From: Candidatus Latescibacterota bacterium
GTDB taxonomy: Bacteria; Latescibacterota; UBA2968; UBA8231
Reading direction: 5' to 3'
DNA length: 64,000 bases
Assembly: GCA_965200315.1 (NCBI GenBank)
Contig: OZ241362.1
Location: forward strand, 3,584,001-3,648,000
This document shows, one piece after another, positions 7,616 through 40,971 of this stretch. The notes below the pieces were generated by a model that saw only the letters and a list, made by a program, of their open reading frames with translations, searched no databases and had not been told where the DNA came from. Both the position numbers and the translations under genes were made by a program. How positions within the stretch are numbered: position 1 is the stretch's first letter; each line of letters begins with the position of its first letter.

Positions 7616-7627
7616 AATTCCTCTACT

Positions 7628-7670: not shown

Positions 7671-7735
7671 ACAGGATAGATGGGATTGTATTGTTTTACA
7701 ACATCCCACGTCAAACGCCCTCAATTGAGGCTCTC

Positions 7736-17289: not shown

Positions 17290-17291
17290 CG

Positions 17292-18062
17292 TCAGCCCTC
17301 GCGCCGCTGCTCGGCCATGGCTTGGGCGGCCTGCGAGAGCACGGTCAGCCGGCCCCCGTAGGTCTTTTGTAGGTTGCCGTCGGTAAAGACCTCGCGGGTT
17401 GGGCCAGACGCCACGACCCGCATGTTGAGCATGATGACCCAATCGAAATATTCGGTTACGGTCTGCAAATCGTGATGCACGACCAAGATGGTTTTGCCCT
17501 GCTGGCGCAGGGCTACCAAGCTGTCGATAATTGCGCGCTCGGTCGCCGCATCCACGCCGGCAAACGGCTCGTCCATGATGTAGATGCGGGCCTCTTGGGC
17601 CAAGGCGCGAGCGAGAAAGACCCGCTGCTGCTGGCCGCCCGATAGCTGGCTGATCTGCCGCTCAGCAAAGGGGGTCATGCCCACTTCGTCGAGGGCCGCC
17701 CAAGCCAAGCGGCGATCTTCCTTGCTCGGCCGCCGCATCCATCCCACATGGCCGTAGCGGCCCATCAGCACCACGTCGAGCGCACTGACTGGGAAGTCCC
17801 AATCCACGGATTCGCGTTGCGGCACATAGCCGATGATCTTGCGCATCTGGCGGTAGTCCTCTCCGTAGATCTTGACCCATCCCGACGCCTTGGGCACGAG
17901 GTCCATAATGGCCTTAATCATGGTGCTTTTGCCCGAGCCGTTGGGACCGATGATGCCCACGAGCTGTCCTTCGGGCACATCTAGGTCCACGTCCCACAGC
18001 ACCGGCTTCTTGTGGTAGGCAATGGTCATATCGTGGATCTGGATGGGATGGGGGGCACTCAC
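17292..18062 (-). CDS. mntB: Metal ABC transporter ATPase
   Basis: GPNGSGKS, LSGGQQQR, DEPF, VHHDL. Confidence 0.93.
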   Translation of the reverse strand: MSAPHPIQIHDMTIAYHKKPVLWDVDLDVPEGQLVGIIGPNGSGKSTMIKAIMDLVPKASGWVKIYGEDYRQMRKIIGYVPQRESVDWDFPVSALDVVLMGRYGHVGWMRRPSKEDRRLAWAALDEVGMTPFAERQISQLSGGQQQRVFLARALAQEARIYIMDEPFAGVDAATERAIIDSLVALRQQGKTILVVHHDLQTVTEYFDWVIMLNMRVVASGPTREVFTDGNLQKTYGGRLTVLSQAAQAMAEQRREG

Positions 18063-23675: not shown

Positions 23676-24092
23676 ATGCCAAGACTCAAGACGTATGATC
23701 TATTTCTGAGCCATGTATGGCGTAGTGCCGAAAATTCCGAATACTACCGCCTTGAGAATCTTCTCTACGAAGCACCGTACTTCTATTGGCGCAATTACTC
23801 AGTTCCAGAGCACGATCCACTGGGAACAAAGACAGATAATGAACTACGTCAAGCACTTGACCGACAAATTGCCCCAGTAAACTGCTTTCTTGTGGTTTCT
23901 GGCATGTACGTGAATCATAGAAAGTGGATTCAGGAAGAGATCAACATCGCCATAGACTACGATAAACCGATTGTTGGCGTTAAGCCTTGGGGTCAAGAAC
24001 GTGTACCGATTGAGGTGCAAAATGCTGTAAAGGAAATGGTTGGTTGGCAAACGAGTAGCATCGTAGATGCTATTCGGAGATGGTCTTTGTAG
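23676..24092 (+). CDS. ThsB-like (MTH538/DUF1863-type) TIR domain protein
   Basis: YDLFLSHVW, NYSVP..DP, SGMYVNHRKWIQEEI, KPIVGVKPWG, VGW..SIVDAI. Confidence 0.82.
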   Translation: MPRLKTYDLFLSHVWRSAENSEYYRLENLLYEAPYFYWRNYSVPEHDPLGTKTDNELRQALDRQIAPVNCFLVVSGMYVNHRKWIQEEINIAIDYDKPIVGVKPWGQERVPIEVQNAVKEMVGWQTSSIVDAIRRWSL

Positions 24093-24155
24093 CTAAAAAC
24101 TTGAAAAACCTACGACAGCCCTTGCTACATCATAAGTCGAAAAGGCGGGAAAGAG

Positions 24156-24650
24156 ATGAGCAAAGACAACCTGAATTTGCTGCGCCAGAGTAAAGATGAC
24201 TACGGCACTGAATTTGAGAATCACCTTTTTGACCAGTATAAGCTATATGTCGAAATGGCTGATCGAATCAGTGCACGGCGAATGCTCGCAAACTCGTTTT
24301 TCGTCGGTGTGCATACGACCCTGACTATCGCCTTTACTGTGCTGCTCAAAGAGAAGGTGCTACAGCCTCCCTCGCTTATCTTTGTGCCTTTTGTCTCCTC
24401 GATACTTCTCTGTTATGTGTGGTGGCGCGTCGTGTGTTCGTATCGGCAGCTAAACACGGGTAAGTACAAGGTAGTCCTAGCACTTGAGCAAATGCTACCT
24501 GTTGCTCCGTATGATGCCGAATGGATAGCCTTTGGCGAAGGGAAGGATAGAAAGCTATACCGGCCGCTTACAGATGTAGAAAAGTGGGTGCCGGCATGCT
24601 TTGGTTTGTTGTATGTCTTGTTGGCCGGTATGTTTTACTTCAAGGGATAG
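24156..24650 (+). CDS. Small integral membrane protein (3 hydrophobic segments), putative pore-forming effector
   Basis: QYKLYVEMADRISARRMLANSFF helix followed by TM segments, SYRQLNTGKY..LE, EW, VEKWVP..F. Confidence 0.65.
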   Translation: MSKDNLNLLRQSKDDYGTEFENHLFDQYKLYVEMADRISARRMLANSFFVGVHTTLTIAFTVLLKEKVLQPPSLIFVPFVSSILLCYVWWRVVCSYRQLNTGKYKVVLALEQMLPVAPYDAEWIAFGEGKDRKLYRPLTDVEKWVPACFGLLYVLLAGMFYFKG

Positions 24651-24718
24651 CAAGATGTCGCCAACGGACGGCTGTGAACCTACACTGCTCGCAGCAGACA
24701 CGAAAGGATAGCTGGATT

Positions 24719-25165
24719 ATGAAAGTTTTTATCAGCCATGCCTATACAGATGAGCCGCTTGTCAAGAAAATTGTGGCTAGCCTAGAGGAAGTTGGTCTCG
24801 AAGTATGGGATGCCACCCGCGACGTCCTCCATGAGGCCAATTGGGCCGACGAAGTGGCGCGGGCGTTGGAAGAGTCAAAAGCCATGGTGGTCCTCCTGAC
24901 CGCCGACGCTCTACGTTCAAGTTGGGTACGTCGGGAGATCGAGTATGCTCTTGGCGAACAAAACTATCGCGAACGTCTGATTCCCGTCCTTGCAAGCGAC
25001 CTAGGGGAGCTGAAGAAAGAAGATATTCCATGGATTCTTCGGCGCTTACATATAATTGATATGGGTGAATACGCCAAGGAAGAAGAAGGAATTAGTCAGA
25101 TTGCACAGACACTTCTAGAAAATGATGTCACAAGCTCTCCGCCTCCATCTGCATCAATTGCTTGA
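24719..25165 (+). CDS. TIR_2 domain protein
   Basis: MKVFISHA, VW, AMVVLLT..SSWVRREIEYAL, LIPV. Confidence 0.85.
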   Translation: MKVFISHAYTDEPLVKKIVASLEEVGLEVWDATRDVLHEANWADEVARALEESKAMVVLLTADALRSSWVRREIEYALGEQNYRERLIPVLASDLGELKKEDIPWILRRLHIIDMGEYAKEEEGISQIAQTLLENDVTSSPPPSASIA

Positions 25166-25168
25166 ATT

Positions 25169-25582
25169 ATGTTGCCAAAGGAAATTTTTCTTTCACATTC
25201 TGACCAAGATCGGCAATTTGTGGAAAGGTTGGTCTCCGTAATGAGGCGGCATGGACTTCCCATCTGGTACAGTCGAACTGATGTACTTGGAGGACAACAA
25301 TGGCATGACGAAATTGGGGAGGCACTTCGGCGCTGCGATTGGTTTGTGCTTGTCTTATCGCCGAGTTCCTTGGAATCCATGTGGGTAAAAAGAGAGATAT
25401 ACTTTGCTCTTAACCAGAACCGCTTTGAAAACAAGATTGTTCCTCTTTTGTACCAACACTGTGCCTACGAGCGACTTTCTTGGACGCTGCACTCCTTTCA
25501 GATGATTGATTTTACACAATCTTTTGAACAGGGGTGTCGCGCCCTCCTACGTGTGTGGGGTTTGGGATACCAAGCAGCGTAA
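25169..25582 (+). CDS. TIR_2 domain protein
   Basis: IFLSHSDQD, WHDEIGEAL, FVLVLSPSSLESMWVKREI, IVPLL, IDF. Confidence 0.87.
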   Translation: MLPKEIFLSHSDQDRQFVERLVSVMRRHGLPIWYSRTDVLGGQQWHDEIGEALRRCDWFVLVLSPSSLESMWVKREIYFALNQNRFENKIVPLLYQHCAYERLSWTLHSFQMIDFTQSFEQGCRALLRVWGLGYQAA

Positions 25583-25609
25583 TCTCCCAGTTTGATGAGA
25601 ACTTATTCA

Positions 25610-26080
25610 TCACACCTTCCCCGCAAAAGCCTCCCGCAACAGAGCCGACGGCATAGCGTCAATAGCGTCCAACTTTTCTTCCGCTGCCGCTCGCGCCTTC
25701 TCCACTGCTGCCATCTGCTTTTTGAGAATTGCCGCAATTCGCCGCTGCTCTGCAAGCGGCGGGAGAGGAATTTTGCGTTTGAAGAGGTATTCTTGAGGTA
25801 ACCTTTGTTGTCCTACTGAACCAGTGAAATGTTCTGTTGCTTCTAGAAGAACGCTGGGTTGCCGAACGAAGAAGTGTATCCATTCGGCGATTATGTGCTC
25901 GCTTGGGCGGAGAACATGAAACTCCGTCGTGCCAAATCCAATACCATCTAATAAGTCTCGCGCTATCGCGTGTTTTCCGTTCTGCATACAAGGGGTAATT
26001 TTTGCGAAAAGAACATCCCCTTCAACGAAATACGTGTATCCTCTTTTGATCTCACCAAACGGGCGTATGTGTAACTTCGC
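25610..26080 (-). pseudogene. hsdS: Type I RM specificity subunit, C-terminal half only
   Basis: GDVLFAKITPCMQNGK, GSVGQQR, IPLPPLAEQRRIAAIL, LLREAFAGKV*. Confidence 0.85.
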
Positions 26081-26735: not shown

Positions 26736-27038
26736 ATGGAAAACACATACTTCGTCCCGACCGACGCCGAGCACATCGCTCGCGAGAAGAACAAGGCCAA
26801 AATGCTGCGCCGCTCCGAGTGGTGGAAGCGCAGACGGGCCGCTGGCCAGTGCCACTACTGCCAGCAGTCGTTTGCCTCCGAGGAACTGACCATGGATCAC
26901 GTGGTGCCCCTCATCCGCGGCGGCCGCACCACCAAATCCAACGTGGTCCCTTGCTGCAAGCACTGCAACAGCCAAAAGCAGCACCGGCTCCCCATCGAAT
27001 GGGCGGCCTATCTAGCGCGGCTGCGCGACGAAAGCTAA
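26736..27038 (+). CDS. Small HNH endonuclease
   Basis: CHYC, TMDHVVPL.RGG, NVVPCCKHCNSQK. Confidence 0.9.
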   Translation: MENTYFVPTDAEHIAREKNKAKMLRRSEWWKRRRAAGQCHYCQQSFASEELTMDHVVPLIRGGRTTKSNVVPCCKHCNSQKQHRLPIEWAAYLARLRDES

Positions 27039-27041
27039 AAG

Positions 27042-27983
27042 CTAGTGATAGTCCACAATGTCAGCTATAGCCGCGGCCACTTCCGCGGCCACTTCCGCCG
27101 GCACTCGCGGATTGAACGGGCCACCCTCGCCGCCATCCACATCGCTGAACCCCCCCAAGTGCATGGTCTCGACCACGGCTGAATAGTTGTACATGCGGCC
27201 ATCGCGGAAGCGAATTCCCTCTAGAGCCGCAAGCTTGTCTTCAATCTGCTGCGACGTCGCAAAATCGCCCCGGCGCTGGGCGTTGTTGAGCTCGTCTGAG
27301 GCGCGAGCAAAGGCCACGTTAATTCCCGACGTATGCCCTTTGGTGCCGCGCTCGGCCGGCCCAGTCGAACGATCTCCCACACCCCAAATCACCAGCGCAG
27401 CCCCTTCTTCCACACCCGCGACAATCGGCTCAACATCCTCGACCGTGGTGCCGATCTTAAGCCCGACGAAGTGCTCGGACTCGTTCATCAGCCGCACGGC
27501 TATGTCGCGCTCGGCTTGGTTGCGCAGGTAGTAGAGCAACTTGGCTCCGCATGAACGCCCCAGCCGCTCGGCGAGGTCGAGGTGATAGGCAAAAATGCCC
27601 TCTGGACTGGCCACGCCGGTAAGCGGCATGACGAGATAGACATCCGGGGGATATTCGAGCGCGGCCTCTCGCTCGATCAACCGCTCGGCATCCCCCACCG
27701 GATTGGGGGCAATCCCGGCCATCAGCACCCCGCGCCGCCCCATCTGCTCGCCGGTAAAGCCCAACAGCCGCACTTGCTCGTCCGCGCTAATGTGGTGGAT
27801 CAAGCTGGTCCCGGCGATGCCAATCACCCGGGGCCGGCCGCCCTCTAGGTGATTTTTTTCCATCAAGTAGTTGATGTTCTTGGCGTGGGCGTCGTAGTCG
27901 ATTTGTCCGCCGCGAAAAGGGACCACCGGGATGGAGGTAACCGAGTTTAGTGCGGCGAGTAGGTCTTCTTTTTGCAATGGCAT
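27042..27983 (-). CDS. Divergent DHDPS/NAL-family TIM-barrel lyase
   Basis: IPVVPF..IDY, degenerate AGTS loop, YYLR, GLKIG (Schiff-base Lys). Confidence 0.65.
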   Translation of the reverse strand: MPLQKEDLLAALNSVTSIPVVPFRGGQIDYDAHAKNINYLMEKNHLEGGRPRVIGIAGTSLIHHISADEQVRLLGFTGEQMGRRGVLMAGIAPNPVGDAERLIEREAALEYPPDVYLVMPLTGVASPEGIFAYHLDLAERLGRSCGAKLLYYLRNQAERDIAVRLMNESEHFVGLKIGTTVEDVEPIVAGVEEGAALVIWGVGDRSTGPAERGTKGHTSGINVAFARASDELNNAQRRGDFATSQQIEDKLAALEGIRFRDGRMYNYSAVVETMHLGGFSDVDGGEGGPFNPRVPAEVAAEVAAAIADIVDYH

Positions 27984-28016
27984 ATTTAACCTCAACTGTG
28001 TTAGGTGGTGATGAAT

Positions 28017-29090
28017 TCAACGCTCGGGCGCGAAGCGGCGCATGTCGCGCCCCGGAGTTCCCGCGGCGATCCAGCGGGCGATGATTTGGCCGGTGATCGG
28101 GCCTAGCAAGACGCCGTTTTTGTAGTGCCCAGAGGCCACGAAAACCCGCGGCGCATCCGTCAGCGGGCCGATGAGCGGACGCCCACCTCGGGGCTTGGGC
28201 CGCAGACCGGCCTGCTGGCGCGACAGCGGCAAAGATATTCCCAGCGCGGAGCGCACCTCCGTGGCGAACTCCGCCGCGGCCGCACGGGTTGTTTCCAGCC
28301 GAAAGCCGACCTCCTCCACCGTCGATCCCACGATCATTTCACCGCCGTCTGGAATGAAGTGGCGTCCGTTTATCCTCACTAGGTGGCGCAGCGGAGCACC
28401 GACAAAACGGGCTTGTTGGCCCCGCACCGGGCGCAGCGCAATTGGGGCACCGAGCTGCGCTGCCAAGCCGCCAGTCCACGCGCCAGACGCCAAGACCGCA
28501 AAGTCGGCGCGGTGGGTCCCGCGAGTAGTCGCGATCTCCACGGCCTCGCCCTCTTGGGCAATGCGCCAGACGCGCTCGCCCCAAGCGGCGGATGCGCCCT
28601 GCCGTACGGCCGCCGCCCAAAGTGCCGCGCCCAACTTGAAGGGGTCCACCCGGTGATCGTCGGCAAAATACAGCCCCTCGCCGCCGTCCAACCCCGGCTC
28701 CGCATTGCGCAAGGCCCGCTCGTCGAGCCGCTCGACCCGACAGCCGCGCTCGCGGTTGAAGCACCATACCTCCTCTAGCTGGGATGCGTCGGCAAAAAGT
28801 TCGATGCCGCCAAGGGGACGCCAGCCCACGTCTGCTCCTAGGTCTTCGGCTAGGTCGCGGGCCAGCCGAGTGTGCAAAGCGTGGCCGTCGCGGAAAAGCT
28901 GGGCGTAGGGATTGTCGCCGCCGTTGCAGTGAGTGAGGACGCCCAAAGAGGCCCGGCTCGTAGGCGAGCCTGCGGGGATGCCCTCGTCGAGCAGGACGAC
29001 CTTTGCGCCTTGCCGGGCGAGGAAATAGGCGGTCGAGCGGCCAATGATACCGGCCCCGACCACCAACACGCACGCGCCCGTCAGGGCCAT
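28017..29090 (-). CDS. FAD-dependent glycine/D-amino-acid oxidase (ThiO/DadA-like)
   Basis: GAGIIG, PVRGQ, GSTVE, AGLRP, GHYKNGVLLGP. Confidence 0.85.
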   Translation of the reverse strand: MALTGACVLVVGAGIIGRSTAYFLARQGAKVVLLDEGIPAGSPTSRASLGVLTHCNGGDNPYAQLFRDGHALHTRLARDLAEDLGADVGWRPLGGIELFADASQLEEVWCFNRERGCRVERLDERALRNAEPGLDGGEGLYFADDHRVDPFKLGAALWAAAVRQGASAAWGERVWRIAQEGEAVEIATTRGTHRADFAVLASGAWTGGLAAQLGAPIALRPVRGQQARFVGAPLRHLVRINGRHFIPDGGEMIVGSTVEEVGFRLETTRAAAAEFATEVRSALGISLPLSRQQAGLRPKPRGGRPLIGPLTDAPRVFVASGHYKNGVLLGPITGQIIARWIAAGTPGRDMRRFAPER

Positions 29091-30260
29091 CTAGCGACCG
29101 ACGATCGGCGGCAGGTTGGTCGCCGGGCAGGCGCGGGGGCCTTGGACTGGATAGCCCATATCCGCGAGGACGCAGTTGATTTGGGCCTCTAGCTTGATCA
29201 GGTACTCCTGTTCGTACGCGCTGCTCGACGCACGCGCTGGGCCTACGTCAAAGCCGCGAGCCGCCACGCCGGTCTTAAAGCCCTCTGGGAAGTTGACCCC
29301 GAGGAGCATCAAGTTGATGAGATCGAGGATGCGGTATTGCAGTTCGCGGGCCCGCTCGATGTCGCCGCTTTTGGCCTTTTCATACAGCTCGACGATCACC
29401 TCCGGGACGATGCCCGAGGTGGCGATGGTCCCCCCACTGGCACCCATGAGCACCGCGGGAAATACGATCTCCTCGCAACCGGTCAGCACCACGTAGTCGG
29501 GGCGCTGTTGGCGCAGGCGGTTCATGGTGTTGAGCAGTCGCGGCAGGTCGCGGCTGGAGTCCTTGGTCCCGCAGAGCCGCTCGTAGGGCAAGAGCCGCTC
29601 CAGCAAATCTATCGACAGCTCTTGGGTAAATCGCGGAATATTACACAGCAGGATGTCCAGCGGCGATTCTTCGGCGATTTCAGCGAAGTACTCGAAGAGG
29701 CTCTCGGTGGAAATCTCGTAGTAATAGGGGGGCATCAGCGCAATGGCATCCACGCCGAGTGAGGCATAGTATTCGGCCATCTTGAGCACGTCGCGCAAGT
29801 TGGCCTCGCCGGCTCCGGCCAGTACGGGTACACGGCCCTTGTTAACCTCGCAGACCAGTCGCACCACGTCTTGGCGCTCCTCCGGCGACAGGCGTGCGAA
29901 CTCGCCCGTGCTGCCGTTGGGGTACAGCCCATGGATCCCGACCTCGATCAGCCAGTTGATGTAGCGCTCCATCTCGGCGTGGTTGATCTCGTTCTGGCGG
30001 TCGAAAAGGACGACATTGGGGCAGAAGATGCCAGCAAATGCCTGGCGGCCGGCGGCGCGAGGCACTGCTGGTGCCGGTGCTGGCGTTGGGGTGGCTTGGC
30101 GGTCAGCCTCCCGGCGGACGATCTCAACGCCTTGGACGCGCAAAAAATCCTGCGCCGAGGGCGTCAGCTTGGACCCCGGGCCGATTTCGACCTCCCGTGC
30201 GCCAGACAGGCGACCCTCCAAGGTCTGAGCGGTAATTACAGCGTCGTCAATCCGAACCAT
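29091..30260 (-). CDS. DHDPS/NAL-family aldolase with N-terminal BMC-associated domain
   Basis: NGSTGEF, PPYY, CNIP, KDSS; ~70-aa N-terminal extension VITA..LTPSAQDFL plus Pro/Ala linker. Confidence 0.85.
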   Translation of the reverse strand: MVRIDDAVITAQTLEGRLSGAREVEIGPGSKLTPSAQDFLRVQGVEIVRREADRQATPTPAPAPAVPRAAGRQAFAGIFCPNVVLFDRQNEINHAEMERYINWLIEVGIHGLYPNGSTGEFARLSPEERQDVVRLVCEVNKGRVPVLAGAGEANLRDVLKMAEYYASLGVDAIALMPPYYYEISTESLFEYFAEIAEESPLDILLCNIPRFTQELSIDLLERLLPYERLCGTKDSSRDLPRLLNTMNRLRQQRPDYVVLTGCEEIVFPAVLMGASGGTIATSGIVPEVIVELYEKAKSGDIERARELQYRILDLINLMLLGVNFPEGFKTGVAARGFDVGPARASSSAYEQEYLIKLEAQINCVLADMGYPVQGPRACPATNLPPIVGR

Positions 30261-30274
30261 TTTTCGAGTCCTCG

Positions 30275-31423
30275 CTAAACGTGCGGCAGGCGGCCTTCGA
30301 GGCCGCTGTAGGGCTGCGGAATGGCGTAGGCCGAGGCCAGCTCTCCGTGGGCGATGGCCTCCTGCCGGCCCGCCTCTATGGCGACCTGCACGGCACCGAC
30401 ATCGCCGCGCACGACGGCGGCCGTCAAGTAGTACCCCACCTTGTAGGCCCCTTCGTATTCGACGGCCGCGGCCTTGAGCATTCGATCCACGGCCCGCACC
30501 AAGGCCACGGTGCTGCGCGTCTCAATCAGCCCCATCGCCTGCCGCGCACCCGAGCCCAAGCCCTCGGCCGCGGTGGCAAAGCGGGCGACTAACGAGGAAT
30601 CGGGCCTAGAGACTACGGCCGAGGCGTCGAGCTCGCCCAAGGCCGTGGCGGCCGCAACACCAGCGCGTACCGCAGCCTGCACATCGTCGAGCTGACCGGT
30701 AGCCAGCGCGGCAATTCGCCCGCCGCTGCCAATGCTCAAGCGCTCGATTTGGACATCCGCAGCCTTGAGCATGGCGTCCGCACTGCCTACGACCGCCGCG
30801 TAACCAATGGTCTCTATGAGGCCCAAGGCACCGGTAGAGCGCGGCGCAGCCGCTGGCGCGGGCGGCAACAGAGGGCCTAGCCCCTCGCTGGGCTGAGGCA
30901 AAACGAGGGTCGCGTACACGGTGCCGATCCGCTCGGCTGCTTGTCGGCCGACTTCTAGCGCCGTCTGCACGGCCGCCACATCGCCAAAAACGGGCGCGTG
31001 ACACAGGGCACCGCCGATGAAGGCCCAACCCCCTAGCTCCACTTGCGCGGCCTTGAGCATGGCGTCGGCACCGGCCACCAGAGGCGTCAGGCCCTGCGTC
31101 TCCAACAGACCAATCGCCCGCGGCTGGACCTGCTCGGCACCGAGGCCGGTCGCATGGGGCATGGCATCCACGGCGCGCGCATCCGGCCGCGGCACCACTT
31201 GTGCGCCAATCAGTTCACCGGTGCGGTTCGCCTCTACCTCGCCAACGCGAATGGCCGCCTCTACATCAGCCACTTGGCCGGCGATTACTGCGGTGAGCCA
31301 ACCCGAGCCAATCCCGTGCCGGCCGCAAAGTCGCACCTCAGCGGCCTTGAGCATGGCATCGGTAGAAGCCATCAGCGACGCCATGCCGCGCGTCTCCAGT
31401 ACACCGATTGCCCCGCTAGACAC
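30275..31423 (-). CDS. BMC shell protein with four tandem BMC domains
   Basis: Four repeats of G(L/V)(L/I)ET..D(A/R)MLKAA..G.V..V..A..(P/S)(R/Q)P. Confidence 0.88.
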   Translation of the reverse strand: MSSGAIGVLETRGMASLMASTDAMLKAAEVRLCGRHGIGSGWLTAVIAGQVADVEAAIRVGEVEANRTGELIGAQVVPRPDARAVDAMPHATGLGAEQVQPRAIGLLETQGLTPLVAGADAMLKAAQVELGGWAFIGGALCHAPVFGDVAAVQTALEVGRQAAERIGTVYATLVLPQPSEGLGPLLPPAPAAAPRSTGALGLIETIGYAAVVGSADAMLKAADVQIERLSIGSGGRIAALATGQLDDVQAAVRAGVAAATALGELDASAVVSRPDSSLVARFATAAEGLGSGARQAMGLIETRSTVALVRAVDRMLKAAAVEYEGAYKVGYYLTAAVVRGDVGAVQVAIEAGRQEAIAHGELASAYAIPQPYSGLEGRLPHV

Positions 31424-32000
31424 CGCCCCCTCCCATCGGCATGGCGTATGCGGCCAAGACCTCGGGCCGCGGCTGTGGGATCAGGGCCGTGCCCAGCAAG
31501 CGCTCGCAGCCCGCGAGCAACTTTTGCGCGACAGCTATGGCTTCGGTGACGGCCCCTATGTCTCCCAAGACCAGCGAACACACCACGCGGTCGTGGACCG
31601 TCAGCACATTGATTACCTCGACGGCAGCCGTCTTGACCATCTGATCGTTCGTGTAAATGTGGGCCCCGTAGCCGCGCGTCTCGACCAACCCTAGGGCACC
31701 AGCGGGAAAGTCGCTGTCGGAGCGGAGCGGAAAATCGACGAAATGACTGCAGGCGGCGGCAGGTTGATGGAGAGGCACGGCCACTACGTGTTCTACCACG
31801 CTGCGGGCCGCTTCTTCACCGCTTTGCAGCGCGGCCGCCACATCGCTGATTGACCCGGTGAAAAAAGCCGTGGTATAGCCGCCGATTGACGCCCAACCCG
31901 CGAGCTTTATGTCCGCGGCCTTGCAGGCCGCATCCGCACCCACAATGGCCGCGGCCACGCCCGCCACCTCGATCATGCCGACTGCCGGGTCGCCCGCCAT
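31416..32000 (-). CDS. Tandem (two-domain) BMC shell protein
   Basis: GMIEVAG..DAACKAA and GLVETRG..DQMVKTA..IPQP; overlaps the start of the next gene. Confidence 0.85.
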   Translation of the reverse strand: MAGDPAVGMIEVAGVAAAIVGADAACKAADIKLAGWASIGGYTTAFFTGSISDVAAALQSGEEAARSVVEHVVAVPLHQPAAACSHFVDFPLRSDSDFPAGALGLVETRGYGAHIYTNDQMVKTAAVEVINVLTVHDRVVCSLVLGDIGAVTEAIAVAQKLLAGCERLLGTALIPQPRPEVLAAYAMPMGGGGV

Positions 32001-32003
32001 AGC

Positions 32004-32432
32004 TCAGTCTGCCAGCCGGTGAACGACTAGCTCGGTGATCTGCTCAATTAAGGCTTCTGGATCGGTGGCTCGGCCCTGCTCGATTTGTTGCAAAAGCGTC
32101 TTGTAGCGGTTGCAACCCTCGCAACTCGCCTCCGGGTCGCCCGCCTGCTTGCGCTCGTGGACGGCGCAATCGCCACAGTGCGCCGGCTCGACGTACCCCG
32201 AGCCAAATTCCTCGTGCTGGCAGCCACAGGCGCGGTCGGGATGCTCGCACCGGCCCGCGTCCGCAACGGCCTCGCCGCGACTTAGCTGCAAGCGGTGCTG
32301 GCGGATGTAATCCCAAGCCGTTGGCGTCAAGATGGCGCTGGGGGCTACGCTGAGCATCCGCTCGCCCTTGTGCTCGCGCCCGAGCAAATCGCCAGTGACG
32401 ACCGGGGCACCAATGTGCAAAGCCTCAGCCAA
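32004..32432 (-). CDS. BMC-associated Cys-rich protein with putative C-terminal encapsulation peptide
   Basis: [15 protein letters not shown] domain; CEH..ACGC..HCGDC..CEGC; [17 protein letters not shown] amphipathic helix. Confidence 0.7.
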
Positions 32433-32688
32433 TATGGTCTGTCAACCCCTCAACCGGGCGGGGAATCACGTGGACGCTGCGCAGCTCGCCGATGCGCTGG
32501 GCGGCTTGCGCTCCTGCATCTACGGCCGCTTTGACAGCCGCTACGTCGCCTTCGACCAGCACGGCGATTAGGCCACTGCCCACGCGCTTTTGGCCCGCAT
32601 AGCTCACGTCGGCGGTCTTCAACATGGCGTCGAGGGCTTCGACGACGCAGACCAGACCGCGGGTTTCGACCATGCCCAATGCTTTCAT
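32425..32688 (-). CDS. BMC-H hexameric shell protein (PduA/EutM-like)
   Basis: [39 protein letters not shown]. Confidence 0.95.
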
Positions 32689-32704
32689 TATTTATCTCCT
32701 CTAC

Positions 32705-33265
32705 CTACAAGTACAGCGCGATGAGATCGTCGTGGGGGCGGGGAATCACGTGCTGCGACACGAGCTCGCCCACGCGCTCAGCCGACTCAGCGCCGGCACT
32801 GACTGCAGCCTGCACCGAGCCGACGTCGCCGCTGACCATGGCGGTGATGTACCCGCCGCCGATGTCTTGGAGCTTGACGACCTCCACATCGGCGGCCTTG
32901 CTCATGGCGTCGGCTGCTTCGATCACGCCGATGGATCCCTTCGTCTCAATGAAGCCCAAGGCGCGAGTGCGGCCATCGCGGTCGCCGCGGTCACCGCACT
33001 CGGGCACGACGGCCGTCAACTCGCTGTGCGGGCGGGGAATCACGTGGACCGAATGCACCTCTCCGACCTTGGCCGCCGCGGTCGAACCAGCATCCACGGC
33101 CGACTTGACGGCCGCCACATCGCCCGAGCAAAACACGGTCACCAAGCCGGAGCCAACTCTATCCCAGCCCAAAAGCTGTACGCTGGCGGCCTTGGCCATG
33201 GCGTCGCCGGCCTCGACGACCCCGACCAGCCCCACAGTTTCTACCATACCTATTGCATCCGACAT
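32705..33265 (-). CDS. Tandem (two-domain) BMC shell protein
   Basis: Two canonical PduA-like domains, each ending HVIPRPH. Confidence 0.92.
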   Translation of the reverse strand: MSDAIGMVETVGLVGVVEAGDAMAKAASVQLLGWDRVGSGLVTVFCSGDVAAVKSAVDAGSTAAAKVGEVHSVHVIPRPHSELTAVVPECGDRGDRDGRTRALGFIETKGSIGVIEAADAMSKAADVEVVKLQDIGGGYITAMVSGDVGSVQAAVSAGAESAERVGELVSQHVIPRPHDDLIALYL

Positions 33266-33302
33266 CCCTTACCTCCTGAAGTAATTGTGCGGATTTTTGC
33301 GT

Positions 33303-33974
33303 TCAACGCTCCAAATATACCTTGCGGGCGTGTACCAAATCAATCGCATTGCCCTCGTCCGTGTCGATGTGAACTTCTAGACGCTCGCGGTCGCTGACTC
33401 GGCAGATTAGGCCTTCCAGCACCCCGCCCTGATCGCCTTCTACTACCAGCCGCAGCAAGTCCCCCGGGCCGACCCCGTAGTACGCAGCCTCGGCCGGGTT
33501 TAGATGCACGTGGCGGGCGGCCCGAATCACCCCGCGATCCAATTCCAGCCCTCCGGCCGGCCCCACCAAGTAGCAGCCCGGCGTCCCCTCGACGTTGCCG
33601 CTGAGCCGCACCGGTGCGTCAATGCCCAAAAAGCGGGCCTCCGTAAAGGCCAGCTCCACTTGGTTGTAAGCGCGCAATGGGCCGAGGATGCGGACATTGG
33701 GAATCACCTGCTTGCGCGGGCCGAAAACCGCCACCGTCTGCTCGGCGGCAAAAGCCCCTTCTTGGTACAGGGCCTTCTGCACGGTTAGCTTGGCACCCGC
33801 GCCGAAGAGCGCGTCGAGGGCCTCTTGGTTGAGGTGGACGTGGCGGGCGGACATATTGACGACCAGCCTCGGGGCCGGGGGTGCCTGCTCTAGCTGAGCG
33901 TCGGGCAAATGATCGTACACCACCCGGCGCACCAACGCCTCAATCTGCTGGCGGTCCAATCTAGCCGCTTCCAT
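33303..33974 (-). CDS. pduL: PduL phosphotransacylase with N-terminal encapsulation peptide
   Basis: SARHVHL, RILGPLR, RLSG, ARHVH, HIDTDEGNA; QIEALVRRVV helix. Confidence 0.93.
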   Translation of the reverse strand: MEAARLDRQQIEALVRRVVYDHLPDAQLEQAPPAPRLVVNMSARHVHLNQEALDALFGAGAKLTVQKALYQEGAFAAEQTVAVFGPRKQVIPNVRILGPLRAYNQVELAFTEARFLGIDAPVRLSGNVEGTPGCYLVGPAGGLELDRGVIRAARHVHLNPAEAAYYGVGPGDLLRLVVEGDQGGVLEGLICRVSDRERLEVHIDTDEGNAIDLVHARKVYLER

Positions 33975-33977
33975 TGC

Positions 33978-34292
33978 CTACCTCTCGCGGCTCAGTTGCC
34001 GACAGTCGAAGTCCTTGCCCATAGCCTGTAGCGAATCGACGATCCCGACGATTACCGCGTCGGTTGGCACATCACCCAAGTTCGGGGCGATCCGCGACGA
34101 GCTGCCCTGCACCAAAATCACCAACTCGCCCTTGCCAGCTTGCACCGCGTCGATGCAGACCATATCCCGCCCGGTCAGCACCAGACCATGCTCGCGCACC
34201 GACGCGATTTCGACCACTAAGAGTTTCTTGCCGTGCAGGCTCGGGACCTTGGCCGTGGAAACCAGATGCCCTTTGACTTGGCCCAAGAGCAT
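33978..34292 (-). CDS. eutN: BMC-P vertex protein (EutN/CcmL)
   Basis: G.V.G.LVST.K, KLLVV, DAVQAG.GE.V, GSSSR, DAVIVGIVD. Confidence 0.93.
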   Translation of the reverse strand: MLLGQVKGHLVSTAKVPSLHGKKLLVVEIASVREHGLVLTGRDMVCIDAVQAGKGELVILVQGSSSRIAPNLGDVPTDAVIVGIVDSLQAMGKDFDCRQLSRER

Positions 34293-35698
34293 CAGGTGAT
34301 GCGGAAGTAGTCCACGAGGGCGCAGCGGCGCTGGCGGGTAAAGGTGCGCGGCGACGTCAGCCCCTCGCCCGTAGGCCCGGCGATGGAGTACGTCCCAAAG
34401 CCCTCGCCGCCCAAGCCAACCCCGGCGTAGGAAGGACCGTTCTTGACGAAAATGGTGGTATCCACGGCGCGGGCCATGTTGTGCATGTTTTCGATGTTGC
34501 GCGAATGGATCACGGCCGTGTGCCCGTAGCCGTGCTCGGAGATGACGGCCTCGCGGATGGCTTGGTCAATGCTGGGCACACGCACAATCGGCAGAAAGGG
34601 CATCATCTGCTCCTCGCGCACGAAGACATGGTTGGCGTCCGTCTCGCCAACGAGCATGCGCAGCGACGAGTCGAGCCGCAGGCCGATGCGCTCGCCCAGC
34701 ACGGCAGCGTCGCGCCCCACCAACTCGCGGTTCGCTGCGAGATGCCCGTCTGGCCCTGTGCCAAAGGCCACCTGCGCGAGGGCCTCGATCTGCCGCGCAT
34801 CGAGCTCGTACGCGTTGTATTGGACCATCTGCCGCTTGAGCTCGTCGGCAATGGAAGCGACGGCAAAGACTTGCTTCTCGCCGATGCAGAGGATGTTGTT
34901 GTCGAAGGCCCCCCCGTCGATGATGTCGCGTGCGGCCTTGGCCAAATCGGCCGTTTCATCGACGACCACGGGCGGATTGCCCGGCCCGGCGATGATGGCC
35001 TTTTTGGGGCTGCCCAGCGCGGCCTTGGCCACGCCCGGCCCGCCGGTGACCAGCAGGAGGCAGATGCCCGGGTGGTTGAACAGTTCGTTGGCCGTCTCAA
35101 TGGTCGGCGTTTCGACCGCGGTTACTAAGTTGGCCGGCCCGCCAGCCGCGCCGATGGCTTGATTGATCAAGCCCACCGCGAACATGGAGACCTTTCTACC
35201 CGCCGGATGTACGTTGAAGACGACTGAGTTGCCGGCGGCGACAATGCAAATGGCGTTGTTGACCATCGTCGGCACGGGATGCGTCGATGGAGTAACCGCG
35301 CCGATGACCCCGTAGGGAGCCATTTCGACTACGGTCAGCCCGTGATCGCCGGTCCACGAAATCGCCTCTAGGTCTTCGACGCCGGGCGTGGTGTCGGCCG
35401 CGACTTGGTGCTTGATGATCTTGTCGTCCAATCGCCCCATGCCCGTCTCGGCCAAGGCTCGCCGCGAAAACTCCTCGGCGTGGGCGTACGCTGTCTGCCG
35501 CAGGGCCTCGACGATCTTTTTGCGCTCCTCCAGCGACAAGGCGACCAACTGCTGCTGGGCGCGGGTCGCGCCTTGAACGGCCGCGTCAATCGTCGCGAAG
35601 ACCCCAGTGTCCCCGCCCTCGCTGCCACCGCTGACGACGCGCTGCACCACTTCTTCGACTATTTTGCGTACGTGTTCTTCGCTGACATTTTGGGACAC
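34292..35698 (-). CDS. CoA-acylating aldehyde dehydrogenase (EutE/PduP-like) with N-terminal encapsulation peptide
   Basis: PYGVIGAVTPSTHP, TGGPGV, GPGNPPVVVD, FDNNILCIGEK, EQMMP, PTGEG; VRKIVEEVVQRV helix. Confidence 0.93.
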   Translation of the reverse strand: MSQNVSEEHVRKIVEEVVQRVVSGGSEGGDTGVFATIDAAVQGATRAQQQLVALSLEERKKIVEALRQTAYAHAEEFSRRALAETGMGRLDDKIIKHQVAADTTPGVEDLEAISWTGDHGLTVVEMAPYGVIGAVTPSTHPVPTMVNNAICIVAAGNSVVFNVHPAGRKVSMFAVGLINQAIGAAGGPANLVTAVETPTIETANELFNHPGICLLLVTGGPGVAKAALGSPKKAIIAGPGNPPVVVDETADLAKAARDIIDGGAFDNNILCIGEKQVFAVASIADELKRQMVQYNAYELDARQIEALAQVAFGTGPDGHLAANRELVGRDAAVLGERIGLRLDSSLRMLVGETDANHVFVREEQMMPFLPIVRVPSIDQAIREAVISEHGYGHTAVIHSRNIENMHNMARAVDTTIFVKNGPSYAGVGLGGEGFGTYSIAGPTGEGLTSPRTFTRQRRCALVDYFRIT

Positions 35699-35838
35699 GC
35701 TTTTTTCCTCGCGTTGGATCTAAATATTTTAAGAATGGGGAAAATAGGCGGCCCCACTCTGAGCGTCAAGGTCATTTGACGGGCTGCTAGGCCTGCCTTA
35801 AGGTTTGTGCAAGTGCTGGAAAAACAAAGGAGAAAGAC

Positions 35839-36642
35839 ATGCGCATCATCCGCTTTATCGACGCTGACGACGCCGTCCGGTGGGGCCTCAAAGCCGAGGG
35901 CGGCCAAGCCTCCGTTCTCGCCGGCGATATCTTCGCCGAACTAGTGCCGACCGGCGAACAAGTGTCCGTCAAAAGACTGCTCGCTCCGCTGGCCCCGACC
36001 AACATTTTCTGCATTGGGCTAAACTACCGAGAGCACGCGGCCGAATCCGGCCTCGAACCGCCCGAGCAGCCCGTCGTCTTTGCCAAGCCCACGAGCGCGG
36101 TCTGCGGCCCGGGCGACCCGATTTTGCTGCCAGCCTGCTGCCGCCGCGGCCCGGAAGTTGACTACGAGTGCGAGCTCGCGGTGGTAATCGGCAAGGCCGC
36201 CCGCAATGTGGCGCGGGCCGACGCCCTCAGCTACGTGCTCGGATATACGTGCGCCAACGACGTCTCGGCCCGCAAGTGGCAGCTCCACGGCGGCGGCGGC
36301 CAGTGGATCCGCGGCAAGGGCTTTGACACCTTTTGCCCTTTGGGACCGGTGCTGGTCACAGCCGACGAAATCCCCGACCCGCAAACCCTCGGCATCCGCA
36401 CGATCCTCAACGGCGCGACCATGCAGGACCACACCACCGGCGACATGATCTTCACGGTCGCCGAACTGATCGAATTCCTCAGCCAAGATACGACCTTGCT
36501 GCCGGGCACGGTCATCCTCACCGGCACTCCGCAGGGCGTGGGTTTTGCGCGCAAACCTCCCGTGTGGCTCGCAGCCGGCGACGAGGTCATCGTCGAAATA
36601 GATCAGATCGGCCAATTGCAAAACCCGGTGGAAGCGGCCTAG
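35839..36642 (+). CDS. Fumarylacetoacetate hydrolase family protein
   Basis: IGLNYREH, DYECEL, NDVSAR, GKGFDTF, TGTP.GVG. Confidence 0.92.
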   Translation: MRIIRFIDADDAVRWGLKAEGGQASVLAGDIFAELVPTGEQVSVKRLLAPLAPTNIFCIGLNYREHAAESGLEPPEQPVVFAKPTSAVCGPGDPILLPACCRRGPEVDYECELAVVIGKAARNVARADALSYVLGYTCANDVSARKWQLHGGGGQWIRGKGFDTFCPLGPVLVTADEIPDPQTLGIRTILNGATMQDHTTGDMIFTVAELIEFLSQDTTLLPGTVILTGTPQGVGFARKPPVWLAAGDEVIVEIDQIGQLQNPVEAA

Positions 36643-36645
36643 CGC

Positions 36646-36966
36646 TCACGCTTCCTTGAACATTCCGAAGGCAAAGGCTTCGGGTAGCTCCTCAAAGATA
36701 ATCTCCCCCTCGTCGTCGGTCTCCAACAACTGGGCCATGTAGTCGTACCATTTTTCTAGGATGGGAACTTGGCGGCTCTTGAGCCAGTGTTCCTCGGTCG
36801 GGGCGACCGCGTGGATGACGAGGTGTTCGCCCAAGCGGTAGATAGCCATGCTGACCTCGTTGTCGGTCATGCTGTCGGCGATTTCGGGCCACAGGTCGTC
36901 GTGGGCCTGTTTGTACTCGGCGTACGCATTGGGGCGCAGCCGCATGGCCAAGCCAATTGAATACAT
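36646..36966 (-). CDS. rhaM: L-rhamnose/fucose mutarotase family
   Basis: EYKQAHDDLWPE motif, KWYDYM, 106 aa. Confidence 0.75.
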   Translation of the reverse strand: MYSIGLAMRLRPNAYAEYKQAHDDLWPEIADSMTDNEVSMAIYRLGEHLVIHAVAPTEEHWLKSRQVPILEKWYDYMAQLLETDDEGEIIFEELPEAFAFGMFKEA

Positions 36967-38087: not shown

Positions 38088-38255
38088 ATGCTCAGCCCTA
38101 CGCCGGCAGTCAAGTTCACCTATCTATGAGGATTATCAGCACACCCCGGATGACCGGCGCTACGAGTTATTGGCTGGATGGAGGTACTCTTGAGGTGGTG
38201 CCTGTACGGCGAAAGACTGACGATGGTCTCGCCGTTGAATCTAAACGAGATTTTT
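38088..38255 (+). pseudogene. Uma2-family endonuclease remnant
   Basis: MLSPTPAVKFTY, 4-bp duplication (ctat), then EDYQHTPDDRRYELL..DG; the core is deleted. Confidence 0.6.
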
Positions 38256-38328
38256 GGGGTGTGAGGAGGCATTCAAAAGAGTGCCGCCATGCACAGCATA
38301 TAGTGATCACCCTACAAAGGAGGAAATC

Positions 38329-40971
38329 ATGCCTAGCCCAAAATCATTACAACAGATCTGCCGCAATACTTTGCCGCTGATGTTGCAGCAGGCAAATGGG
38401 CAGGAAATGATGGCGGCGGTGCGAGATGTGGCACAAACCGATCGCTGGAATTCGTTTGACCGCTTCGGCGAAACGACCGCCACGCTAACTAGCCGCTACG
38501 AGGCCACTGGCGCACGCGTGGAGGTCGAATCCATCCAGACCGGAGGGCGGCTGGGGTCGGGCCGGTGGATCATCCGCGAGGCCGCCGATGTCGCGGGTGC
38601 GACCGTGGATGTGGTACATCCGCTCGCCGAGCGGGTGCTGGATTGGCAGGAGAATCCCTGGCACGTCATTCAGTGGAGCGCGGCGACCCCGGCGAGCGGC
38701 TTGCGGCTGCGGCTCGTGATTCTCGACCAAATCGAAGACATCCAACGCCAGCCAACCGACGGACTCACCAGTGCGATTGTGCTGACCAAGCTAGATCCGC
38801 GTGCCCACCTAGGTCTTTTGGCCGCCAAGGGGGCCGCCGCCGTCATCACCGACCGTTTGGTTCCCAATCTGCCCAAGGCAGTGGCGTGGACCAAATTCGG
38901 ATGGGGTGCCATTCCCCTCGAACATGCGGCGGCGCGGTTGGTGGGTTTTGTGATCTCTGAGCAACAAGGGAAGCGGTTGCGCCGGCTAGCGCAGCAGCGC
39001 GGCCCCCTAACCCTGCACGTAAGAGCCGACATCCGCAAATACGTCGGCAGTCACGACGTGGTCAGCGGCATCATCGAGGGAGCAGGCGATCCGCAGGACG
39101 AAGTGTGGGCCATCGCGCACAGCGCCGAGCCGGGGGCCATAGACAACGCTTCGGGCGTGGCCACCACCTTGGAGATCGCCCGCGTGATCGAAGGGCTTAT
39201 CCGGGCGGGCAAACTCGTGCGCCCCAAGCGCACCATTCGCCTGCTCAATGCCTATGAGTGCTACGGGTTCTTCGCCTATCTAGAGAGGGTGCGGCGCTTG
39301 CAGACCCCTTTGGCCGGCGTGTGTATCGACACAGTCGGCTCCCAGCCCGCCATCTGCGATGGCCGGCTGGAGTGGCACGCGACCATCCCCATGTCGTCAG
39401 GTTTTGTCGATCGAGTCGGTGCGGCTATCTTACGGGCCGGAGTGCGGCAACACAAGCCTCGCTATCGAGTGCATCTAGAGCGATTCATGTCGACGGCTGA
39501 CACCTTGATCGGCGATCCCCAGTACGGATTTCCCTGCCCTTGGATCACCACGCATCACCTCAAGAGCGGGCGCGGCTTCGACGCCTACCACTCCTCGGCC
39601 GATGTGGAAGCACTGCTCAGTCCGCGGGGGCTGGAGACCTGCGCGGCCTCAATGGCAGCCTATCTGTACTACTTGGCCGACATGGGCAGCCGCGAAGTGG
39701 GGGAGTTGGTCCGCACTGAGACCCAGCATTTTCTCTCCGTATTACAACAGAAAAAGCGACCCCGAGCCGAGGCCGAGTACGTGCGCGAGGCACACAGCCG
39801 CAGCGTGCGACGATTGGTGCGCTGGCTCTGGGGAGGCAGTCGGCGCGAGGTCTTGGAGGCCATGGACGAAAGCGAGCGGCAAGTGGCGACCGCCGCAGCC
39901 GAAACCGCGCTACCGGACAAGCGAGCGCGGCGCACGGCCCAAGCGCGGCTAGTGCCACGGCGCACGGCCGTGCTCTCACCGACCAGCGAAAACACGCCAG
40001 CCGCGGTCAATGCGCGCATCTCGGCTGCACAGCTACCGCCGTGGGCGCTGTTTTGGGCCGATGGACGCCGGAATTTAGGCGAAATCGCCGAGTGCATTGC
40101 CTGCGAGGAAGCCGACTATCCGGCCGGGCCGCGGACGGAAGGGCCCGTCGCTGTTGATCGGGTTCACAAGTACTTTGCAGCACACGCTGAATTGGGCTAT
40201 GCCGAGTTGACCGACCCGGCTAACATGCTCGGCCGCAGGGAACTAGTGAAGGATTTGCGCCGCTTGGGCGTCACCCCAGGCATGGATCTGATGGTCCACA
40301 GTTCCCTGTCGGCCATCGGCTCTGTCGAGGGCGGCGCTGAGACCGTCGTCGATGCGCTCTTGCAGGCGGTTGGCAAGCGCGGGACCCTGCTGGCACCTTC
40401 GTTCAATCACCGCACGGCGAAAGTCTTCAACCGGCTGACCACGCCCACCACCAACGGCACCATCCCGGACGCGCTGTGGCGGCGCACCAAAGCCGAGCGC
40501 AGCATGCATCCCACTCACGCGGTAGCGGCGATTGGTCCGCGGGCCAGCGATTATTGCCGAGGGCACCTCGAAGCCGGCATCTGGGCTCCAGATAGCCCGA
40601 TCGGCAAATTGGTACACAGCGGCGGCTACATTCTCGCGCTGGGCACGACGCACGATACGAGCACGGCCTACCACGTGGCCGAGATGTCCGTGCCCTGCGG
40701 CTGCATTGAATCCTTTGCAATTCCAGACCGCATCGTGCGCGACGACGGGACCGTGGACGAGGTCTTGGGGCTGGCCTTTCGCAGCGGCCCCTGCCCGGTT
40801 CCAACCCACAAGCTAGACTCCACCCTCGACCGGAGGAAGTTGCAGCGGCGGGGCAAGGTCGGGCAGGCCGAATGCGAATTGGTAAAGGCCCACGACCTGT
40901 GGCAGGTGCGGCGCGAACATCTGCGGCGCGTCTGTCCCACTTGCGCCGTCAAGCCCCAGACCGCACGGTGA
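38329..40971 (+). CDS. Fusion: M28/DUF4910-like peptidase domain plus AAC(3)-family N-acetyltransferase
   Basis: AHSAEPGAIDNASG, E, YHSSAD in the N-terminal part; LMVHSSLSAIG.VEGG, RSMHPTH, TAYHVAE in the C-terminal part. Confidence 0.8.
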   Translation: MPSPKSLQQICRNTLPLMLQQANGQEMMAAVRDVAQTDRWNSFDRFGETTATLTSRYEATGARVEVESIQTGGRLGSGRWIIREAADVAGATVDVVHPLAERVLDWQENPWHVIQWSAATPASGLRLRLVILDQIEDIQRQPTDGLTSAIVLTKLDPRAHLGLLAAKGAAAVITDRLVPNLPKAVAWTKFGWGAIPLEHAAARLVGFVISEQQGKRLRRLAQQRGPLTLHVRADIRKYVGSHDVVSGIIEGAGDPQDEVWAIAHSAEPGAIDNASGVATTLEIARVIEGLIRAGKLVRPKRTIRLLNAYECYGFFAYLERVRRLQTPLAGVCIDTVGSQPAICDGRLEWHATIPMSSGFVDRVGAAILRAGVRQHKPRYRVHLERFMSTADTLIGDPQYGFPCPWITTHHLKSGRGFDAYHSSADVEALLSPRGLETCAASMAAYLYYLADMGSREVGELVRTETQHFLSVLQQKKRPRAEAEYVREAHSRSVRRLVRWLWGGSRREVLEAMDESERQVATAAAETALPDKRARRTAQARLVPRRTAVLSPTSENTPAAVNARISAAQLPPWALFWADGRRNLGEIAECIACEEADYPAGPRTEGPVAVDRVHKYFAAHAELGYAELTDPANMLGRRELVKDLRRLGVTPGMDLMVHSSLSAIGSVEGGAETVVDALLQAVGKRGTLLAPSFNHRTAKVFNRLTTPTTNGTIPDALWRRTKAERSMHPTHAVAAIGPRASDYCRGHLEAGIWAPDSPIGKLVHSGGYILALGTTHDTSTAYHVAEMSVPCGCIESFAIPDRIVRDDGTVDEVLGLAFRSGPCPVPTHKLDSTLDRRKLQRRGKVGQAECELVKAHDLWQVRREHLRRVCPTCAVKPQTAR

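Follow-up and report, generated by a model that had tools for sequence, protein, structure and literature searches.

How does a shell protein with four bacterial microcompartment (BMC) domains build a tile, when, to our knowledge, all described microcompartment facet tiles are symmetric, being built either from a single domain present six times or from a two-domain chain present three times? The question is raised by a 64,000-nucleotide stretch of a Candidatus Latescibacterota genome (contig OZ241362.1, positions 3,584,001–3,648,000; hereafter the window, whose own numbering is used below), in which the gene for a four-domain BMC protein, here called Q, begins within the end of the gene for a divergent two-domain BMC protein, T2. 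We propose that T2 and Q probably join one to one as a hetero-pseudohexamer, the heterodimer itself being a product of structure prediction. An earlier reading of the DNA, made without database searches (the sequence-only reading), had raised this possibility and suggested checking it by Pfam domain count, by a survey of co-occurrence and by multimer prediction. The two genes and their parts are laid out as follows.

30275–31423, minus strand: Q, four-domain BMC shell protein, 382 aa, GTG start (open reading frame and Pfam PF00936)
31184–31411, minus strand: Q domain 1 (residues 5–80), edge Lys and the Arg of the PRP motif kept
30890–31117, minus strand: Q domain 2 (residues 102–182), Gln in place of Arg
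30602–30829, minus strand: Q domain 3 (residues 199–278), Arg of the SRP motif kept
30311–30538, minus strand: Q domain 4 (residues 295–375), the most conserved of the six domains
31416–32000, minus strand: T2, divergent two-domain BMC shell protein, 194 aa, ATG start (open reading frame and Pfam)
31782–31985, minus strand: T2 domain a (limits 6–77), profile match
31470–31697, minus strand: T2 domain b (limits 102–177), profile match
31416–31423, minus strand: overlap of T2 stop and Q start, 8 nt (GTGTCTAG); GGGAGG lies a few bases before the GTG

Q was described from the outset as a 382-aa protein with four complete, non-permuted BMC domains, and this was borne out both by Pfam and by the strand order of an AlphaFold2 model. 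Q matched PF00936 in four stretches (E = 3.8e-76, 251.5 bits) and T2 in two (E = 1.1e-30, 105.8 bits), against a cut-off of 24.5 bits. In a whole-genome family search, each domain of either protein exceeded this cut-off by itself, all four Q domains covering positions 1–75 of the 75-position profile and the two T2 domains positions 1–71 and 1–75. The three linkers of Q and the one linker of T2 are similar in length (about 16–22 residues), and the linker between domains 2 and 3 of Q is on par in length and conservation with those between domains 1 and 2 and domains 3 and 4. The 8-nt overlap of the Q start with the stop of T2 and the pore strings first read from the translations (GSG, GGA, GSGG and GYY in Q; GGY and HDR in T2) were likewise correct.

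A fusion of two BMC-T genes through a stop codon lost in this strain only, which the sequence-only reading had named as the outcome that would count against it, is excluded because full-length, stop-free Q spans 82 of 168 genomes and 17 of 49 genera in a survey of the phylum (thresholds E ≤ 1e-60 for Q and E ≤ 1e-30 for T2), with homologues of 285–404 aa. None of the Q matches listed, from at least 17 genera, carries a stop, as under purifying selection. Among 41 related genomes, stop-free full-length Q was found in 23 of the 25 belonging to the window's genus and in one genome of another family; the two exceptions within the genus are a genome 58% complete and lacking any BMC match (G018) and one in which Q is divided between two contigs (G020). 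An assembly or sequencing artefact was also rejected: contigs from four RNA-library runs (Logan contigs, runs X1–X4, from one metatranscriptomic study) carry the identical sequence, with no differing letters at 30001–32191. More widely, a word-indexed search of 5.8 billion proteins, in which 8000 candidates were scored, gave at least 741 protein matches at E ≤ 0.001, of which the best 120 are 285–404 aa long and 55–95% identical to Q. The record titles of Q-bearing genomes read Gemmatimonadota or Candidatus Latescibacterota, with single records labelled Planctomycetota and Handelsmanbacteria. Short matches to parts of Q (P0127–P0131 and others) may be fragments at contig ends.

The survey of co-occurrence showed a strict pairing. 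T2 was found in 84 of the 168 genomes (18 of 49 genera), including every one of the 82 that bear Q. The two genomes with T2 only (G081 and G120) are fragmented, into 820 and 980 contigs, respectively; in G081 the T2 match lies too near a contig end to leave space for Q, and in G120 it stops at residue 160 of 194, where we assume a contig end. Each genome holds one complete match for Q and one for T2, the extra rows (for Q in G020 and for T2 in G121) lying on small contigs of fragmented assemblies. Sixty-eight loci were fetched, 65 with a complete four-domain reading frame and three cut by contig ends; in all 65 a two-domain reading frame lies directly upstream on the same strand. The distance from the T2 stop to the first BMC position of Q is −5 to +21 nt in 64 of these loci and 184 nt in the remaining one. 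Since the start of Q overlaps or nearly touches the stop of T2 almost everywhere, the arrangement is that expected for coupled, equimolar translation; in sequence terms, the junction overlap indicates translational coupling of T2 and Q.

The six domains of the pair are distinct and hold fixed positions. In a tree of 102 domain sequences built by a quick method, the sequences of each of the six Q and T2 positions formed a group of their own, with support of 89–100, and so did those of each domain of the canonical BMC-T and BMC-H (one change in every case). The stems of T2a and T2b are very long (1.75 and 2.05), domains 1 and 3 and domains 2 and 4 of Q are not paired, and a weak split (support 87) separates Q3, T2b and the second BMC-T domain from the other groups. 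Across 66 T2/Q pairs, on which the conservation of pore loops, edges and faces was assessed, each pore loop is kept at its own position: R-H-G-[IV]-G-S-G-W in Q1, G-W-[AT]-[FS]-[IV]-G-G-A-L in Q2, L-x-I-[GA]-S-G-G-R in Q3, G-x-Y-K-V-G-Y-[FY]-L in Q4, G-W-x-S-I-G-G-[FY]-T in T2a and V-L-T-V-H-[ND]-R-V-V in T2b. The edge Lys, which we take to be the counterpart of Lys26 of PduA used in tile–tile contacts, is present in 100% of the sequences in all six domains. The Arg of the (P)RP motif, by comparison, is kept in Q1 (73%) and Q3 (94%) only, and Gln is the commonest residue at that position in Q2, Q4, T2a and T2b (58–77%). The two free faces of Q have conservation values of 0.77 and 0.87, against 0.77–0.82 for the matching internal faces; as the free faces are as conserved as the internal ones, something BMC-like must abut them.

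Structure prediction places the domains of each chain like neighbours of a hexamer. AlphaFold2 models of Q alone (pLDDT 88.5, pTM 0.88) and T2 alone (pLDDT 91.8, pTM 0.89) were both confident, and that of Q repeats the order strand-helix-strand-strand-helix-strand four times, which is the non-permuted order; the T2 model and the order of its Pfam profile matches are non-permuted as well. The closest solved match of both models, at 32–43% identity, is a synthetic tandem BMC-H from the Haliangium ochraceum shell (PDB 6NER), which presumably forms a homotrimer. Superposition on 6NER gave TMt values of 0.87–0.91 for Q, with root-mean-square deviations (rmsd) of 1.9–3.2 Å over two domains, and 0.85–0.87 for T2. 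Because neighbouring Q domains superpose on 6NER, they are placed as neighbours in a hexamer, and adjoining domains in Q and T2 lie as do neighbours in its BMC-H hexamer; 6NER differs in being engineered and in carrying two copies of one domain. Natural BMC-T chains fit one domain at a time, with a two-domain rmsd of about 15 Å and TMt of 0.40–0.45. All structure matches to the two models are one- and two-domain chains.

Prediction of the Q and T2 complex closed the ring. The median score was 0.78 (runs of 0.66, 0.78 and 0.84), compared with 0.00 for the best of three controls, which were unrelated proteins and not other BMC proteins; in a benchmark that is rough, since own alignments were used, 116 of 157 solved complexes attained the score mark, as did 2 of 215 mismatched pairs. 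At least 96% of contacts recur from run to run, and the partner pLDDT is at least 87. Q residues 6–92 are predicted to contact T2 residues 109–143 and 188–190, and Q residues 303–360 to contact T2 residues 7–87. Q1 thus lies against T2b and Q4 against T2a in the predicted complex, which closes both ring junctions and gives the order T2a-T2b-Q1-Q2-Q3-Q4. The closed ring of six domains, as a class feature, is a predicted one.

From the observed gene anatomy, domain count, conservation, co-occurrence and synteny, together with these models, a plausible assembly route can be drawn. T2 and Q would be made in equal amounts from coupled reading frames and would bind 1:1 to give one flat hexagonal shell tile with six different BMC domains in the ring T2a-T2b-Q1-Q2-Q3-Q4. 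Such a tile would lack internal symmetry, with the edge Lys on all six edges and the (P)RP Arg on the Q1 and Q3 edges only. Its pore would be lopsided, because the ring order puts Q1–Q3 together, contributing small residues (Ser, Gly, Ser), and brings Q4, T2a and T2b together with Tyr-Tyr, Phe/Tyr and His-Asn/Asp-Arg. The sequence-only reading had offered two options, a 1:1 heterodimer with an asymmetric pore and a double ring of three chains; strict pairing, the coupled junction, the six domain groups, the conserved free faces and the complex prediction lend computational support to the former.

The proposed tile sits close to two described classes without coinciding with either. Like the standard BMC-T(s) trimers (PduT, PDB 3N79 and 3PAC; Haliangium BMC-T, 5DIH), Q and T2 carry non-permuted PF00936 domains in one chain and would form a six-domain hexagon. 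The standard trimer, however, is a threefold-symmetric assembly of three identical two-domain chains, whereas the T2–Q tile would have four plus two domains, two chains and no symmetry; T2 alone has the exactly two domains that mark a BMC-T(s), and Q has four. The circular permutation that marks the double-stacked BMC-T(dp) trimer is absent in both proteins. In passages of the main text of Sutter et al. 2021 (PMC8217296), the stacked BMC-T forms are circularly permuted.

The locus around the pair suggests what such a tile might serve. The neighbouring genes, on either side of T2 and Q, are listed here in their order along the minus strand.

34292–35698, minus strand: aldehyde dehydrogenase, microcompartment type (Pfam; NCBIfam NF011927, E = 1.4e-194)
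33978–34292, minus strand: BMC-P vertex protein (PF03319; Pfam)
33303–33974, minus strand: phosphotransacylase (PF06130; Pfam)
32705–33265, minus strand: canonical two-domain BMC-T, 186 aa (open reading frame, Pfam)
32425–32688, minus strand: canonical BMC-H, 87 aa (open reading frame, Pfam)
32004–32432, minus strand: Cys-rich protein, 142 aa, with an amphipathic C-terminal tail (open reading frame)
29091–30260, minus strand: DHDPS-family (class I) aldolase-like enzyme, 389 aa, with an N-terminal extension of about 70 residues (the tagged aldolase below; Pfam, NCBIfam)
28017–29090, minus strand: FAD-dependent oxidoreductase of the DAO family (Pfam, NCBIfam)
27042–27995, minus strand: second, divergent DHDPS-like protein, 317 aa (Pfam)

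BMC-P, aldehyde dehydrogenase, phosphotransacylase, BMC-H and BMC-T thus share one minus-strand gene row with Q and T2. Eleven BMC domains were found genome-wide, nine at the window locus and two in satellite loci; as there is only one main BMC locus, T2 and Q are parts of the same shell. The pair's most constant companion is the gene of the tagged aldolase: among recognised genes, it follows Q directly in 60 of the 65 loci, the exceptions being one contig end and four loci in which a DAO gene comes next. In 16 loci of another genus (L044–L051, L053–L059 and L068), T2, Q and the tagged aldolase are the only microcompartment genes recognised within 6 kb on each side, in a three-gene cassette with T2 at about 5992–6549, Q at about 6558–7718 and the aldolase thereafter; in G040, T2 and Q do not share a contig with the remaining BMC genes. 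T2 and Q change more rapidly than the canonical shell proteins: at the same distance they show about 57% identity, against 73% for BMC-T and 84–88% for BMC-H. We infer from this gene linkage that the T2–Q tile would be a minor, specialised member of the shell belonging to the tagged aldolase, probably as a substrate gate or as an anchoring or docking site for the enzyme. In NCBIfam, the tagged aldolase comes nearest to N-acetylneuraminate lyase and DapA, below every cut-off. Both an activity as a deoxy-sugar-acid aldolase that yields lactaldehyde and a hydroxyproline-type route by way of the DAO-family oxidoreductase are guesses.

We assign the locus, on its gene content, as a MUF2-type metabolosome, and the tile proposed above would then form part of an aldehyde-processing shell of that type. 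The assignment is made because the counts of BMC domains and BMC-P, the satellite aldolase, and the N-terminus common to the Cys-rich protein and the aldolase match the description in the supplement of Sutter et al. 2021 (Nat Commun, PMC8217296). Aldehyde dehydrogenase and phosphotransacylase are present in the main locus; a BMC-P triplet and a further BMC-P are represented by the four PF03319 matches of the genome, three side by side at 1.128 Mb and one at the window locus. The pfam00596 aldolase described with a BMC-H in a satellite locus corresponds to the sole PF00596 (class II aldolase) match, at genome positions 404731–405258, about 0.9 kb from a BMC-domain match at 403636–403812. A Cys-rich protein is likewise described for MUF2 loci in that supplement, and here one with a tail lies between BMC-H and the two-domain gene and has an N-terminal domain in common with the pfam00701 aldolase: its first part resembles the N-terminus of the DHDPS-family aldolase over 51 residues (BLASTP E = 4e-6), although the protein has no family match in Pfam or NCBIfam. 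Its reading frame starts within the end of the BMC-H gene and stops 3 nt ahead of the T2 start. At window position 32262, inside this gene, an in-frame insertion of 18 nt is present in the X2 and X3 contigs (two of the four RNA-library runs), and the length of the Cys-rich protein therefore varies between close strains.

The supplement passages on MUF2 loci describe the same protein pair and locus type as the window: they mention 'very unusual quadruple linear fusions', and supplementary file 5 holds a 194-aa MUF2 Ts_hazel entry, T2 being 'Ts_hazel'. Q is thus already catalogued in print, while the way in which it builds a tile is unpublished as far as searched. In those passages the quadruple fusions occupy one clause covering 13 loci, with neither an assembly model nor a pairing of the four- and two-domain proteins, whereas the present analysis measures the pairing across 65 loci and 168 genomes and puts forward a ring order. 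That clause is the only mention of a four-domain BMC protein or a 4+2 tile found in a full-text literature search (with subscription journals outside it), and within the same literature 'MUF2' occurs in PMC8217296 and its preprint only. A comparable case of a signature enzyme travelling with its own tile is the 'EUT module' of HO loci, in which, according to passages of the same supplement, an EutL-type BMC-T is encoded with the ethanolamine lyase EutBC; it differs from T2–Q in its permuted BMC-T and its enzyme, and a link to substrate entry is an inferred one in both.

Other ways of assembling Q have to be weighed against the T2–Q ring. Three Q chains would bring together 4 × 3 = 12 domains, enough for two rings, and could form two linked pseudohexamers, either stacked face to face in the manner of double-layer BMC-T proteins or side by side with a shared chain, while T2, whose domain count is that of a normal BMC-T, would form its own homotrimer. 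The conserved free faces of Q would be accounted for equally if Q4 bound Q1 of another chain, and, since a BMC domain has its two termini on one face, a linker of about 16–20 residues could bridge stacked layers. Such an assembly would nevertheless leave the strict one-to-one, coupled linkage with T2 without a reason. Moreover, the linker between domains 2 and 3 is neither longer nor less conserved than the other Q linkers, the tree does not pair domains 1 and 3 or domains 2 and 4 as a duplicated BMC-T would suggest, and Q lacks the permutation that marks the known stacked forms (PMC8217296); we regard a double ring of three Q chains as unlikely. Quite improbable, too, is that the Q arc is promiscuous and is closed by any BMC domains available, whether two BMC-H or a canonical BMC-T, with T2 as one filler among several or as an independent trimer. 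One interface is common to BMC domains, T2 was the only BMC partner covered by the complex prediction, and Sommer and co-workers are said to have described, in 2019, heterohexamers of CcmK3 and CcmK4 in beta-carboxysomes, that is, mixed hexamers of paralogous BMC-H and hexagons made from the products of two genes. Those chains, by contrast with T2–Q, have a single domain each and a variable stoichiometry, and their domain order is not fixed by covalent linkage. The T2–Q pairing is kept in satellite cassettes away from BMC-H and BMC-T genes (the 16 loci and G040), and T2 has diverged far more than canonical BMC-T and BMC-H (stems of 1.75 and 2.05; 57% against 73–88% identity), which fits a dedicated partner. 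Very improbable, finally, is that Q forms no closed tile at all and is an open arc, an edge piece, an internal scaffold or an evolutionary leftover of little function. Nothing direct favours this, although no solved four-domain BMC structure is among the structure matches; purifying selection across at least 17 genera (the listed matches being free of stops), the conservation of the edge Lys in all six domains, the presence of Q in RNA-library contigs, and confident single-chain models that are predicted to be ring-like all speak against it.

Several points weigh against the 1:1 T2–Q tile itself. The complex score of 0.78 may partly reflect the model's memory of solved BMC rings, because many BMC hexamers and trimers have been solved and the controls were unrelated proteins. 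Adjoining and co-occurring shell genes are usual in BMC loci, and adjacency alone is no sign of co-assembly in one tile. Mutual information between T2 and Q columns, computed with average-product correction on 66 pairs (about 21 effective sequences, and hence underpowered), showed no enrichment at the predicted interface, which held 0, 1 and 5 of the 20, 50 and 200 top-ranking column pairs against 0.4, 1.1 and 4.3 expected. The order of descent of the six domains was not resolved by the quick tree. A fused form with all six domains was found neither among proteins of 670–2000 aa, which is weak evidence, nor among the best 150 matches in an unrestricted search of 1.84 billion representatives, in which the longest match of the 150 was P0153, with 569 aa and two BMC stretches.

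Rare three-domain BMC proteins were also encountered among public sequences. P0138, P0140, P0161, P0196 and P0135, of 283–308 aa, have three PF00936 stretches each and occur on 1–5 contigs apiece; P0271 (274 aa), from the cluster of P0138, occurs on seven. The domains of P0138 are 42–56% identical to BMC-T and BMC-H of the window locus, and two three-domain chains would likewise total six domains. No paper on three-domain BMC proteins was found in a literature phrase search. A stronger form of our proposal takes these proteins in: T2 and Q would be an obligate 1:1 heterodimer, the tile fully asymmetric with six different edges and a lopsided pore, its place in the shell single and orientation-specific, and its role that of a dedicated gate or dock for the aldolase, the sole rule for a tile being that its domains total six (1 × 6, 2 × 3, 3 × 2 or 4 + 2). 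We hold this form to be possible but somewhat doubtful.

If T2 and Q do combine as proposed, theirs would be the first natural tile without symmetry, made of two different chains and six different domains. Its pore could fit a single asymmetric ligand, and its six edges would be separately tunable, which bears on shell size, curvature and tile placement. For shell engineering, the tile would offer a scaffold with a single changeable position per tile, which is impossible in symmetric tiles. The MUF2 organelle, functionally unassigned, would gain a handle in a tile and an aldolase that move together; its locus occurs in many uncultured genomes labelled Gemmatimonadota and Latescibacterota.

The RNA-library contigs show the presence and sequence identity of T2 and Q; they are silent on transcript ends, strand and level, and, as such libraries can hold DNA, cannot prove transcription. 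Unbroken contigs run across all shell genes at 29577–35716 (X4) and 29693–36000 (X1). The X4 contig ends 18 nt upstream of the start codon of the aldehyde dehydrogenase gene, and mean contig depth is 17–39 over the shell genes against 1–26 over 27000–29500; the span of the X4 contig and the depth together hint at a single transcription unit.

The operon is directly preceded, at 35839–36966, by a plus-strand gene for an FAH-family hydrolase and a minus-strand gene for an L-rhamnose mutarotase, a weak hint of deoxy-sugar catabolism. Immediately after the operon, the segment 22364–27038 is of low GC content (0.483 at 24001–26000 against about 0.6 around it) and encodes three TIR-domain proteins, two of them ThsB-like, an 8xMP membrane protein, reading frames for an N-6 DNA methylase and a type I specificity subunit, and an HNH endonuclease; it looks like a defence island. 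Elsewhere in the window, two adjoining ABC-3 permease genes at 14687–17442 each encode a C-terminal iron-dependent-repressor metal-binding domain and adjoin genes for an ABC ATPase, a ZnuA-like binding protein and a DtxR-type repressor. Finally, 38254–40971 encodes a 905-aa protein whose only Pfam match, to an aminoglycoside 3-N-acetyltransferase-like family, lies in its C-terminal part (residues 680–890).

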